Below are positions 62,308 to 64,000 of a stretch of 64,000 nucleotides of DNA, piece by piece. This stretch comes from Escherichia phage vB_Eco-B1.1, in sequence record ON871820; one strand, written 5' to 3'. Under the pieces are notes generated by a model. That model was not told the DNA's origin, made no database searches, and worked only from the letters and a program-made list of their open reading frames with translations. Made by a program: the position numbers and the translations under genes. The number at the start of each line of letters is the position of its first letter. The stretch's first letter is position 1.

Positions 62308-62916
62308 ATGAGAATGCAAAGTGATTTCAATTCAATGTTTGAAGAGTTCCAAAGGCAGGTTGATGTTCCAGACCAATTATTAAATGCTCTTAAACGTATG
62401 GCAGAAGGACGTAATTATTATTGGGGTTCTTCATATGAAACTGATGAAAGTCTTTCTGGAAGATTTTCCAGAGGTAAAAAGTCTTTAATACGTCCTGGAA
62501 TACTTATTAACAGTATTGAATCAATTCATTCATTGACGTGTGATTTTGATGTTGAATTTACTGATTTCATTTCTCCTGAATGGACAGTATGTTATTTAAA
62601 CGACGATTATGATTATCTCGGTGTTTATAGTTTAAGTGACGCATGGTTTAAACGTAATTTACAAAAGTCAAATTTATTCTATATTGATACTACTGTAAAA
62701 TTTCAGGGCAAGAAATATTTCTTTACTCTTATAGTTGATTCTGAAACGAAGCATGAAAATAAGCGTATTCTTAGTAAAAAGAATATCTTAACTATTGTTG
62801 ATGATCTTTTTGATAAATTCGTGGAAAATCCCAATTTTGAAAGCGATTTATTATTAGAAAAATTTGTTAAGGAATGTAGAGAATATGTCAAAACCATCAC
62901 TATACCTTCCAAGTAA
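62308..62916 (+). CDS. hypothetical protein (202 aa)
   Basis: ORF with ggagtaaataggaATG context. Confidence 0.5.
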   Translation: MRMQSDFNSMFEEFQRQVDVPDQLLNALKRMAEGRNYYWGSSYETDESLSGRFSRGKKSLIRPGILINSIESIHSLTCDFDVEFTDFISPEWTVCYLNDDYDYLGVYSLSDAWFKRNLQKSNLFYIDTTVKFQGKKYFFTLIVDSETKHENKRILSKKNILTIVDDLFDKFVENPNFESDLLLEKFVKECREYVKTITIPSK

Positions 62917-63277
62917 ACCTTTGAAGTATGAATCAAAGCACCAGATAATTTCTACTGATGTATTAATAGGTCCTGTTATACTTATATCATTTGTAATTCT
63001 ATTGATTATTGGAGGTGTTTTAGATGTTATGACTGATATTGATTCTGGCGAAATACTTGTGTTAATGCTAATTCTTCCATTGGTAGTTCCACTTTTATTA
63101 GTACCCGTAAATTGGGTAGGATACTGGTATCAAGGAAGACATTATCGTAAACGTGTACACGATTGGAAAGCTCAGTGTAAAAAGATTAAAAAGGAACACC
63201 AGCTTAAACTTGCTGAGTATGAATTTAATGAAATTATGAAATTTGTTAAGGAATCACGATGCAAAAGCCAAAACTAA
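62864..63277 (+). CDS. small integral membrane protein (137 aa; start may be Met at 62885)
   Basis: Two strongly hydrophobic TM segments. Confidence 0.5.
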   Translation: MLRNVENMSKPSLYLPSKPLKYESKHQIISTDVLIGPVILISFVILLIIGGVLDVMTDIDSGEILVLMLILPLVVPLLLVPVNWVGYWYQGRHYRKRVHDWKAQCKKIKKEHQLKLAEYEFNEIMKFVKESRCKSQN

Positions 63278-63621
63278 ATAAAGTCAAATATTCGTTTCTT
63301 GAGTCATTTTTAATTTTTGCTGTGGCGTTGGCTGCAGCTCTTGCGGGTAGTCTTTTTGGATTGTTAATTGACTGTCTTATTTTAAACATCGACGGCACAG
63401 TAAATATAACAGAAGTTTGGAATGAGCTTTGTTATACTAAAATTATTTCATTGTTTTCATTCTTTGGTATCATTTTATATTTTCATTATGATAATTTTAA
63501 AATAAATTGGCAAAGAAAAAAGGATTACAAAATACAATTAAAGGAATATAATAGCTACATGTCTTATATTGAAAATGAGTCAATGAAAGAGTTTGTGAGT
63601 GATTGTAGGAAAATTAAATGA
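63259..63621 (+). CDS. small integral membrane protein (120 aa)
   Basis: Two predicted TM segments; overlaps upstream ORF end. Confidence 0.5.
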   Translation: MQKPKLNKVKYSFLESFLIFAVALAAALAGSLFGLLIDCLILNIDGTVNITEVWNELCYTKIISLFSFFGIILYFHYDNFKINWQRKKDYKIQLKEYNSYMSYIENESMKEFVSDCRKIK

Positions 63622-64000
63622 TTTTAAAAACTCGCTGGTATGATTTAGATGATGGGGATGATGGCATTCCAGTTGATAGAGTTGACTGGAATGGTTGTTC
63701 TGAAGATACAAAGAAACGATTAATTAGGGAGTTTAGAATGGGATATCAAGCAGCTAAGCCATTTACTGTAACAGATGATAAATTCGTGTGTATTCAAAAT
63801 GGTCGCGCTAAGTTAACGAATGCTGATTGGTTCACAGATAAGAAGGTTCTTCTGTGGTATATCATTAGTCTTCCTATATCATCATTCGTATTTTACTTTT
63901 TTATAAAAAATCCAATGGACAGAATAGGCGATTGGATTCTTTTAACTATACTTGTTAATATTTTTACAGCAGCAGTATTATCAGGAATATGGCGTATGTT
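63618..64000 (+). CDS. hypothetical membrane protein, 3'-truncated by window end
   Basis: Open frame from ATG 63618 to window end; C-terminal hydrophobic segments. Confidence 0.45.
   Translation, partial: MILKTRWYDLDDGDDGIPVDRVDWNGCSEDTKKRLIREFRMGYQAAKPFTVTDDKFVCIQNGRAKLTNADWFTDKKVLLWYIISLPISSFVFYFFIKNPMDRIGDWILLTILVNIFTAAVLSGIWRM

Follow-up and report, generated by a model that had tools for sequence, protein, structure and literature searches.

Early genes e.4, e.3 and e.2 of a T4-like coliphage encode predicted membrane-hairpin proteins with a conserved C-terminal tail motif

The gene block between the tRNA cluster and nudE

The window analyzed here, a 64,000-nucleotide stretch of Escherichia phage vB_Eco-B1.1 DNA (sequence record ON871820), comes from a T4-like coliphage of the genus Tequatrovirus that is 99.5% identical to vB_EcoM_NBG2; 640 T4-like records match it by megablast. 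At its end lie three small, consecutive and overlapping plus-strand ORFs, whose places and overlaps an earlier sequence-only reading had described correctly, and which are orthologues of the T4 early genes e.4 (62885..63277, 130 aa), e.3 (63259..63621, 120 aa) and e.2 (63618..64000, codons 1-127 of 162, running past the window end). The first two overlap by 19 nt and the last two by 4 nt (ATGA). They follow the e.5 orthologue (62308..62916, plus strand), which encodes a soluble protein of 202 aa, and a GC-rich, UUCG-looped hairpin lying between e.6 and e.5 (62272..62287, plus strand), annotated as ‘terminator’ at the equivalent place in NBG2, forms the upstream boundary of the e.5-nudE block. 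Synteny with annotated relatives gives the conserved order tRNA cluster-e.8-e.7-e.6-e.5-e.4-e.3-e.2-nudE-e. The position of the three genes on the early strand, 3′ of the tRNA cluster and between e.5 and nudE, is the same in T4, Shfl2, NBG2, RB3 and Sf24, and the order e.2-nudE-e is kept across genera. Together, e.5, e.4, e.3, e.2 and nudE constitute a single tightly overlapping block, probably with translational coupling, of which e.5 is the first gene. An Rfam search over positions 57000-64000 returned only tRNAs, and a promoter scan gave no usable signal in DNA this rich in AT (26 matches vs 17 expected).

The ORFs had been described as lacking any assignable feature, an assessment that does not hold, since they correspond to genes long annotated in T4 as “conserved hypothetical, predicted membrane protein”, already catalogued and of still uncharacterised function. 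Order, overlaps and lengths are like those of the T4 genes (UniProt P39222, P32274 and P32273; PHROGs 2604, 2330 and 2203; precomputed Pfam families PF26873 and PF26896), with identities to T4 of ~92% for e.3 and 97.6% for e.2; e.4 is 79 to 100% identical to its counterparts in other Tequatrovirus genomes (tblastn). Full-length family matches were obtained for e.4 (hmmscan, phrog_2604, E=3.6e-69, residues 1-130 of 130) and e.3 (phrog_2330, E=1.8e-57, residues 1-118 of 120), the latter also matching the e.4 family phrog_2604 weakly (E=0.003). The full-length e.2 of NBG2 (162 aa, L002:6016-6504), used as query, matches phrog_2203, ‘membrane protein’ (E=4.9e-77), and a PHROG profile search assigned e.5 to phrog_2607 (E=9.6e-110). 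The name e.4 is in use in Shfl2, T4 and RB3, and 98 of its homologues bear the precomputed PF26873; e.3 has 45 homologues at 67-96% identity. About 530-640 phage genomes carry e.4, e.3 and e.2. An exhaustive HMMER search with the e.2 profile gave 15 hits, 14 of them full-length e.2 proteins or fragments from T4-like phages; the remaining one, the 2100-aa repeat protein P0198, was rejected as spurious. Membership of e.2 in its family is supported by an N-terminal W..D..G..VDW..C domain, which is in frame in the 127 residues present in the window, and by an FIxxCR tail (...NNFITECRKLK), which falls outside it; 11 residues are invariant in the family (I2, W7, D11, G16, V22, W24, C27, F154, I155, C158 and R159).

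Other searches were negative. For e.4, e.3 and e.2, there was no Pfam match at E<=0.1, no match to PADLOC models, only sub-threshold noise in NCBIfam (15.9 bits vs a cut-off of 33), and only families of ‘unknown function’ among PHROGs. Searching PDB sequences with e.5 itself and with profiles for e.2, e.4 and e.3 returned nothing, and a literature search by gene name, locus tag and accession retrieved no functional paper for these genes.

The sizes proposed from sequence (137, 120 and at least 127 aa) stand for e.3 and for the third ORF, which is indeed cut by the window end, but the first is more likely to encode 130 aa. Its start is most likely the ATG at 62885 and not the TTG at 62864, which would add seven codons, because every orthologue starts MSKPSLYLPSKP and there is no Shine-Dalgarno sequence 5′ of the TTG; the ATG-start, 130-aa form is the one annotated in T4, Shfl2, NBG2 and RB3. 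The frame of e.2 is intact through a run of six A residues (63903..63908, plus strand) in an alignment of T4, NBG2 and the window, giving the 162-aa form found in most relatives, whereas the T4 reference has five A residues at this site, a -1 frameshift followed 77 nt downstream by a +1 frameshift, and is truncated to 102 aa (annotated as 309 nt). This frameshifted copy makes the T4 laboratory strain a poor model for e.2.

Two T4 studies bear on expression and dispensability: the RNAs of e.4, e.3 and e.2 are early and all three proteins are detected by mass spectrometry (PMC9697503), and CRISPRi-ART knockdown of e.2-e.5 in a laboratory host is scored ‘Not Fit’, that is, without fitness defect (PMC11879866). 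Natural isolates carry disrupted versions, including an e.5-e.4 fusion with a truncated e.3 in phage FL08, a split e.2 in SG1, and an e.4-e.2 hybrid with no e.3 in UFV05 and UFV11. These frameshifted, fused and deleted versions, together with the T4 data, bear out the earlier view of the ORFs as small accessory membrane proteins in a variable region: e.4, e.3 and e.2 are real, expressed, non-essential accessory genes. Chance ORFs are ruled out by dN/dS, conservation and proteomics.

Predicted hairpins and the distribution of constraint

As the sequence-only reading had noted, each of the three proteins has two hydrophobic helices, visible as two Kyte-Doolittle peaks above 1.6 (residues 26-46 and 57-76 in e.4, 17-38 and 59-76 in e.3, 77-96 and 106-127 in e.2); e.5 has no such peak. 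On the plus strand, e.4 comprises TM1 (62960-63022), an acidic loop (63023-63052), TM2 (63053-63112) and a conserved basic tail (63113-63274), and e.3 comprises TM1 (63307-63372), a loop (63373-63432), TM2 (63433-63486) and a tail (63487-63618) ending in FVSDCRKIK. In e.2, an N-terminal soluble domain (63618-63845) precedes TM1 (63846-63905), the loop (63906-63932) and TM2 (63933-63998). Lysine and arginine residues within 15 residues of the hairpin number 3-4 on the N side, 0, 0 and 2 in the loops of e.4, e.3 and e.2, respectively, and 4-5 on the C side, so that by the positive-inside rule both termini of each protein are predicted to be cytoplasmic, with short periplasmic loops (9-20 residues) of acidic or neutral character. 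Topology was assigned from Kyte-Doolittle profiles, positive-inside counts and one medium-confidence model, the AlphaFold2 model of e.4 (pLDDT 73), in which helices 24-49 and 54-128 form a hairpin and one long helix, the tail reaching pLDDT 82-90. Foldseek matched this model only to uncharacterised T4-like phage proteins among viral models and to nothing in the PDB. The e.2 model was uninformative (pLDDT 50, N-domain unfolded) and was left out of the fold search.

The proteins had also been said to contain little besides their helices, which proved wrong: each has a near-invariant tail of 35-54 residues, predicted to be cytoplasmic, and e.2 has in addition the 75-residue N-terminal soluble domain. 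These are the parts on which selection appears to act. With dS at 0.15-0.28, dN/dS was 0.26, 0.85 and 0.15 for the N-terminus, hairpin and tail of e.4, 0.40, 0.41 and 0.14 for those of e.3, and 0.14, 0.72 and 0.02 for the N-domain, hairpin and tail of e.2; in e.5 it was 0.10 for the body and 0.03 for the tail. Apart from the e.3 N-terminus, the non-membrane parts of e.4, e.3 and e.2 are thus at 0.02-0.26. Invariant columns make up 40/54, 33/44 and 29/35 of the tails of e.4, e.3 and e.2, against 0/11 in the e.4 loop, and column entropy in e.4 falls from 1.39 bits in the loop to 0.17 bits in the tail. Judged from these substitution patterns, the three genes are under purifying selection outside their membrane segments, and the tails, predicted to be cytoplasmic, are constrained most tightly; the hairpin and the e.4 loop are variable. 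The hairpin appears to evolve almost freely, like a generic membrane anchor. However, the loop and TM1 of e.4 exist as distinct allelic cassettes, and this variable region could instead be an envelope-facing business end under diversifying selection; dN/dS is below 1 throughout and positive selection is not demonstrated, but the hypervariability of the loop leaves room for an envelope-facing role.

A C-terminal motif common to e.5, e.4, e.3 and e.2

The point that is new here is that e.5, e.4, e.3 and e.2 end in the same short conserved tail and, on sequence grounds, look like one gene family. The common C-terminal motif is F-[IV]-x-[ED]-C-R-K. In the window its plus-strand codons lie at 62863..62880 in e.5 (F-V-K-E-C-R, 11 residues from the protein end), at 63242..63262 in e.4 (the variant F-V-K-E-S-R-C, invariant in 23 e.4 sequences) and at 63592..63609 in e.3 (F-V-S-D-C-R, followed by K-I-K-stop). 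The pattern F[VI].[ED]CR occurs only twice in the window's six-frame ORFs (45,540 aa), in e.5 and e.3, and only in e.5, e.3 and e.2 in the 162,692-aa six-frame translation of a whole T4-type genome. Tails of the e.4 type displace or lack the cysteine (FVKESRCK, FIKEVRNG). In the e.2 family, F154, I155, C158 and R159 of the tail account for 4 of the 11 invariant residues. Across five Tevenvirinae genera (Tequatrovirus, Gaprivervirus, Dhakavirus, Kanagawavirus and Jiaodavirus), the amino acids of the motif are preserved in orthologues whose overall identity is 21-50%, and in the Klebsiella Jiaodavirus phages up to six products of genes around nudE, some membrane-anchored and others soluble, carry it in intact or degenerate form.

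Profile comparisons extend the relationship beyond the motif. With divergent orthologues added to the alignments, hhalign gave a score of 38.5 (P=4.5e-6) for full-length e.4 against e.3, 33.3 for e.3 against e.2 and 30.2 for the tail of e.5 against that of e.2, none of which was reached by any of 120 block shuffles; e.4 against e.2 was not significant (4/120 shuffles reach the score). Shallow, Tequatrovirus-only alignments gave no significant hhalign result, and with a deeper e.2 profile the tail alone aligned (P about 0.01). These statistics are modest and suggest that e.4 and e.3 are full-length paralogues, that e.2 shares the hairpin and tail, and that e.5 shares the tail.

Candidate roles of the block

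We tentatively propose, as a reading that may well need revision, that e.4, e.3 and e.2 are early adaptors tethered to the inner membrane that present a common cytoplasmic tail to a hypothetical partner. Early in infection the proteins would be held at the inner membrane by their hairpins, leaving as constrained cytoplasmic parts a basic juxtamembrane helix that continues TM2 and then a C-terminal amphipathic turn with F-[IV]-x-[ED]-C-R-[K]; e.2 would add its cytoplasmic 75-residue N-terminal domain. Each tail could be offered to one common partner, of host or phage origin, or could give the proteins a fate in common, for example by way of a protease or of a hetero-oligomer formed through Cys. 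The outcome would be an accessory function in host takeover or competition, relevant only in some hosts or conditions. More speculatively, and with less confidence, e.5, e.4, e.3, e.2 and their neighbours in other genera may make up a family not described before, whose hallmark would be a C-terminal ‘tag’, [FW]-[IV]-x-x-C-R-[KN]. The tag would send early T-even proteins to one partner or fate in common, on the cytoplasmic side of the inner membrane, for instance a protease or adaptor of the host or a hetero-oligomer bridged by Cys (metal), and the fast-evolving hairpins and loops would supply strain-specific specificity.

Alternatively, though we consider it unlikely, the proteins could be counter-defence factors directed at a defence or abortive-infection system of the host, membrane-associated or membrane-triggered, that is present only in some strains. 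Accessory, early genes that the phage can do without in K-12/B laboratory hosts, that are variably disrupted among natural isolates and that lie in the plastic e-tRNA region would suit such a role, and a tail common to several proteins suits decoys or inhibitors directed at one target. Several neighbours are known T4 anti-defence factors (57B/Acb1, tk.4/AdfM and IPI), as cited in the HIDEN-SEQ preprint; the main text of that study, which covers T4 with several defence systems and clinical isolates, does not name e.2-e.5 among its hits. The argument is from context alone, and we found no homology to described defence or anti-defence proteins in Pfam, NCBIfam or PADLOC.

We similarly doubt that the genes act in superinfection exclusion or immunity, with the hairpins altering the inner membrane or binding a component of the incoming phage through the periplasmic loop in an Imm-like manner. 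T4 Imm, with 83 aa and two helices, prevents the entry of DNA, and T4 genetics already accounts for T-even superinfection exclusion through imm and sp. The gross architecture is similar: Imm, too, is small, made early and located in the inner membrane, and it has two hydrophobic helices as well as a short charged C-terminus. Unlike e.2-e.4, it is without a long conserved cytoplasmic tail and without the F-[IV]-x-E-C-R motif, and its function is defined genetically. Early expression in T4 (PMC9697503) and the loss or breakage of the genes in some isolates speak for such a role, and the allelic cassettes of the e.4 loop and TM1, the most variable region, are as expected for an arms-race surface, but the loops are only 9-20 residues long, the strongest constraint falls on the predicted cytoplasmic tails and the cytoplasmic N-domain of e.2, and a dN/dS below 1 offers no demonstration of positive selection. 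The comparison with T4 imm, sp and rI that had been suggested from sequence was negative, as was the Pfam search: aligned directly with Imm, Imm.1, Sp, RI, RI.1 and RI.-1, the three proteins showed no similarity (best BLASTP E 0.18-0.8, phmmer bit scores <5; for Imm, best E=0.79, with e.3, and 4 bits or lower). Sp (spackle) and RI (antiholin) are likewise small T4 envelope proteins encoded in accessory regions. In both, however, a single signal or SAR segment at the N-terminus precedes a functional domain in the periplasm, whereas e.2-e.4 have two hydrophobic helices with positive-inside flanks, forming hairpins, and functional parts predicted to be cytoplasmic. The strongest constraint is on the predicted cytoplasmic tails and not on the parts facing the periplasm, which speaks against a periplasmic mode of action like that of Sp or RI.

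It is less probable still that the tail is a mere by-product of translational coupling, a Shine-Dalgarno sequence read in a fixed frame at the ends of unrelated small membrane ORFs. Some of the motif's conservation does act on nucleotides, because the Shine-Dalgarno sequence of the gene that follows usually falls within it: AAGGAA, AAGGAGGT or TAGGAAA is present in the motif codons in most cases, with 5-11 nt separating it from the following start codon, neighbouring genes meet in ATGA or short overlaps, and the AGGA of e.2 (63607-63610) sits in the last codons of e.3. An exact 16-nt direct repeat, AAATTTGTTAAGGAAT, is present on the plus strand at two junctions, at the 3′ end of e.5 and 5′ of the e.4 start codon (62860..62875) and at the 3′ end of e.4 (63239..63254), where AGGA lies 6 nt before the e.3 ATG; the copies are 100% identical and spaced 379 nt apart. 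Nevertheless, the conserved Arg, Cys and Phe are encoded by differing codons (AGG/AGA/CGT/CGA, TGT/TGC and TTT/TTC, respectively), and the motif persists where the Shine-Dalgarno sequence is elsewhere (FIKYCR of a Klebsiella phage e.5-like protein) or where 29-115 nt lie before the next annotated gene. The tails have a dN/dS of 0.02-0.15 with normal dS, no other gene carries the motif in a T4-type genome with many ATGA junctions, and the full-length similarity of the e.4 and e.3 profiles exceeds that of all shuffles.

A lysis-related role, holin- or antiholin-like and tied to the endolysin gene e two genes downstream, is very improbable. Class II holins and pinholins such as phage 21 S68 are two-helix, N-in/C-in proteins with a charged, basic cytoplasmic C-terminal tail, encoded upstream of the endolysin, and the predicted architecture and the conserved e.2-nudE-e order fit this pattern, but T4 lysis depends on t (whose product, the T4 holin T, is unrelated to e.2-e.4) and its inhibition on RI and RIII, T4 lyses normally with a frameshifted e.2, no holin family was matched in Pfam or PHROGs (best holin fold match E=9), and the RNAs are early (PMC9697503), whereas holins are late proteins that kill the cell when produced early.

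If the four genes and their neighbours in other genera do form such a tag-defined family, the block would be a modular accessory system and not a row of unrelated orphan genes. Relatedness among the four genes would mean that redundancy could mask single-gene phenotypes. The constraint is located in the predicted cytoplasmic tails and not in the hairpins, and F, I/V, C and R are the candidate key residues of the tail. The significance is modest, as the genes have long been catalogued and the family-level tail is the new observation; T4 has roughly 130 uncharacterised genes, and for four of them there is now a sharper hypothesis.

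Identity and public record of the e.4-e.2 genes

The interval 61600-64000 matches 640 phage records, all of them T4-like (Tequatrovirus), with Escherichia phage vB_EcoM_NBG2 as the top match (99.5%). Annotated relatives have the order tRNA cluster, e.8, e.7, e.6, e.5, e.4, e.3, e.2, nudE (e.1) and e (lysozyme), the early (minus) strand of T4 being the + strand of the window. The three consecutive ORFs that a sequence-only reading had seen at the window end, and had not recognised, are certainly T4 e.4, e.3 and e.2. In the ORF list they lie on the + strand at 62864-63277 (TTG start, 137 aa), 63259-63621 (ATG start, 120 aa) and from 63618 to the window end, where the frame is still open. 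The first of them stands as an ORF, but probably not at its full length: all annotations start e.4 at ATG 62885 (130 aa, MSKPSLYLPSKP...), and the 137-aa reading is probably seven codons too long, because no Shine-Dalgarno sequence precedes the TTG. Successive genes overlap by 32 nt (e.5/e.4), 19 nt (e.4/e.3) and ATGA (e.3/e.2). Chance ORFs are ruled out by PHROG matches (E-values 1e-57 to 1e-77), by the spread of the genes in tblastn searches of phage genomes (e.4 in 643, e.3 in 605, e.2 in 533) and by purifying selection outside the membrane segments.

The three membrane genes are an ordinary and already known feature, annotated in T4 GenBank as "conserved hypothetical, predicted membrane protein", and our literature search found no paper giving e.4, e.3 or e.2 a function. 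In T4 their RNAs are all classed early, and the proteins were detected early (e.4), middle (e.2) and late (e.3) (PMC9697503 supplement). Genome-wide CRISPRi-ART knockdown gives the essentiality of e.2-e.4 as previously unknown and lists e.2-e.5 as "Not Fit"; this assay is of low sensitivity, since the lysozyme gene e is likewise "Not Fit" (PMC11879866 supplement). In its main text HIDEN-SEQ, a transposon study of T4 on clinical hosts and on hosts with defence systems, makes no mention of e.2-e.4. Many GenBank/RefSeq records call e.3 and e.4 orthologues 'sulfurtransferase' or 'DNA primase', and public records call e.6 'host specificity protein'; our analysis gives these names no support, and they have the look of mis-annotations copied from record to record.

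Constraint and a shared C-terminal motif

Each of the three proteins has two Kyte-Doolittle peaks, as expected from the two hydrophobic helices first noticed in each ORF. The AlphaFold2 model of e.4 (pLDDT 73) has a helix at 24-49, a 4-residue turn and a single long helix at 54-128. Positive-inside counting predicts an N-in/C-in arrangement for all three, with 3-4 K+R in the 15 residues before TM1, 4-5 after TM2 and 0, 0 and 2 in the loops of e.4, e.3 and e.2, whose net charge is acidic in the first two and neutral in e.2. The view that there is little else beside the helices has to be abandoned: the conserved parts are the tails after TM2 (54, 44 and 35 residues in e.4, e.3 and e.2) and a 75-residue N-terminal domain of e.2. 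Codon analysis over 6-8 Tequatroviruses gave dN/dS values of 0.26, 0.85 and 0.15 for the N-terminus, hairpin and tail of e.4, of 0.40, 0.41 and 0.14 for those of e.3, and of 0.14, 0.72 and 0.02 for the N-domain, hairpin and tail of e.2; the value for e.5 is 0.10 (tail 0.03). Column entropy in e.4 is 1.39 bits in the loop (no invariant column) and 0.17 bits in the tail (40/54 columns invariant), and the TM1-loop region exists in several distinct allelic versions. The trna.4 orthologue at 58117-58299 (60 aa), upstream of the tRNA cluster, is also a predicted two-helix membrane protein.

The four consecutive genes e.5, e.4, e.3 and e.2 have similar C-terminal ends (...EKFVKECREYVKTITIPSK, ...MKFVKESRCKSQN, ...KEFVSDCRKIK and ...NNFITECRKLK, respectively), an ending found on no other gene of the neighbourhood. 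In the six-frame ORFs of the window (45,540 aa) F[VI].[ED]CR occurs just twice, and the looser F[VI].[EDG]CR occurs only in e.5, e.3 and e.2 across a whole T4-type genome (162,692 aa), the e.4 variant being found in that scan by a separate pattern. Equivalent endings occur on e.5, e.4 and e.3 of JK45-type Tequatrovirus (FIMECREY, FVKEIRCK, FIKECRK), in Gaprivervirus UPEC07 (FIAECREY, FIKEVRNG, FIKECKS) and on e.2 of SP18 (Gaprivervirus) and Dhakavirus IME08 (both FIEECRK) and of Kanagawavirus (FIKGCRNGRN). In metagenomic e.2 relatives of 21-36% identity, F154, I155, C158 and R159 are among just eleven invariant residues. In Klebsiella phage 15882-6-4 (Jiaodavirus; L020:1914-4471), up to six proteins around nudE carry the motif or a degenerate form. 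The full form is FIKYCR on an e.5-like protein, WIRSCRK on an e.3-like one and FIAKCRAK on a soluble protein of 102 aa encoded after nudE; an e.4-like protein ends in the Cys-less variant FIKEVRRK, and another two-helix protein (108 aa) in the Cys-less WIKEMK. The motif is therefore not confined to membrane proteins or to Tequatrovirus.

That the motif is a ribosome-binding site read in frame is partly true. At most junctions AAGGAA, AAGGAGGT or TAGGAAA lies within the motif codons, 5-11 nt before the next start, and two junctions have the exact 16-nt repeat AAATTTGTTAAGGAAT in common. However, the residues are kept through varied codons (Arg AGG/AGA/CGT/CGA, Cys TGT/TGC, Phe TTT/TTC), the motif is retained where the Shine-Dalgarno sequence sits elsewhere or the next gene is non-adjacent, and tail dN/dS is very low with normal dS; the protein must therefore be under constraint too. 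One copy of the repeat (62860-62875) lies in the translation-initiation region of e.4 and the other (63239-63254) in that of e.3; the repeat may resemble the AU-rich RegA operator consensus (AAAAUUGUUAUGUAA).

Paralogy and plasticity of the region

Tequatrovirus-only alignments of the e genes gave no significant hhalign result, and the informative runs are those with divergent orthologues added, controlled by 120 block shuffles. Here e.4 and e.3 align over their full length (score 38.5, P=4.5e-6; controls mean 17.2, sd 4.8, maximum 34.2), e.3 and e.2 over hairpin and tail (33.3; control mean 14.7, sd 2.6) and e.5 and e.2 over the tail (30.2; mean 12.0, sd 2.0). The comparison of e.4 with e.2 was not significant, and a deeper e.2 profile aligns with shallow e.3/e.4 alignments by the tail alone (P about 0.01). 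The N-terminus M-[SQ]-K-P-x-L is common to e.4 and e.3. From these alignments we conclude that e.4 and e.3 are paralogues, that e.2 is probably related to them through hairpin and tail, and that e.5 has at least the tail module in common. A 23-nt repeat, 87% identical and in frame in e.5 (62485-62507, LIRPGILI) and at the start of e.4 TM1 (62963-62985, LIGPVILI), may be a remnant of deeper homology, or chance.

The block is plastic. FL08 has an e.5-e.4 fusion and a truncated e.3, SG1 has a split e.2, and UFV05/UFV11, in which e.3 is deleted, have a hairpin protein that is a hybrid of e.4 and e.2; in JK45-type phages other small genes replace e.2. The window e.2 frame is intact. In the T4 reference (L003, T4 67652-67960) e.2 has two frameshifts, one of -1 in the A6 run (window 63903-63908) and one of +1 a further 77 nt downstream. 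The T4 product is 102 aa, the frame being regained after a stop, and T4 is a poor model for e.2 because the conserved tail, encoded in frame 0, is not reached. At the T4 e.2 position, JK45 (L004:3231-4025) has three tandem small soluble ORFs ending G-W-V-(S/A)-S-S-x-x-C, as does one ORF downstream of the e.3-like gene of UPEC07 (L008:3469-3924); these are a second, separate tandem-paralogue family defined by a C-terminal motif. Two short metagenomic proteins (P0193 and P0205), one joining an e.4 N-terminus to an HTH_11-like segment and the other a winged-helix N-terminus to an e.2 tail, probably reflect chimeric assembly or insertions between e.4 and e.2. Upstream, 58687-59701 holds 11 tRNA genes (Gln, Leu, Gly, Pro, Ser, Thr, Met, Tyr, Asn, His, Arg) and no segB, whereas the T4 reference has 8 tRNAs and the segB homing endonuclease. 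Two closely alike GC-rich terminator-like hairpins (60382-60405 and 60920-60939; …CCCC.GCC/ACC.AAAGGTTGGGG…) flank a small-cassette-like 153-aa ORF at 60448-60909.

Possible roles

Comparison with T4 Imm, Sp and RI, to which the sequence-only reading had pointed, found no similarity to e.4, e.3 or e.2. Pfam, NCBIfam and PADLOC returned no family for e.2-e.4, solved structures gave no match by sequence, and Foldseek with the e.4 model matched only uncharacterised T4-like phage proteins and nothing in the PDB. The best-supported mechanistic reading, which we put forward tentatively, is one of tethered tails: the hairpins would be membrane anchors and function would reside in the cytoplasmic tails and in the N-domain of e.2, the tails offering one conserved short helix, which soluble e.5 also carries, to a shared partner or fate at an early stage of infection. 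Superinfection exclusion and counter-defence are both compatible with tethered tails and stay in play as biological roles, each with an equal and rather low probability; an envelope-facing interaction is suggested mainly by the hypervariable e.4 loop. A lysis role is unlikely: the architecture is similar to that of class II holins, but in T4 the orthologues are expressed early, the holin is T, and e.2 is disrupted. The new observations, a tail motif at family level and the constraint map, are modest, and they make the e.5-e.2 block experimentally tractable.
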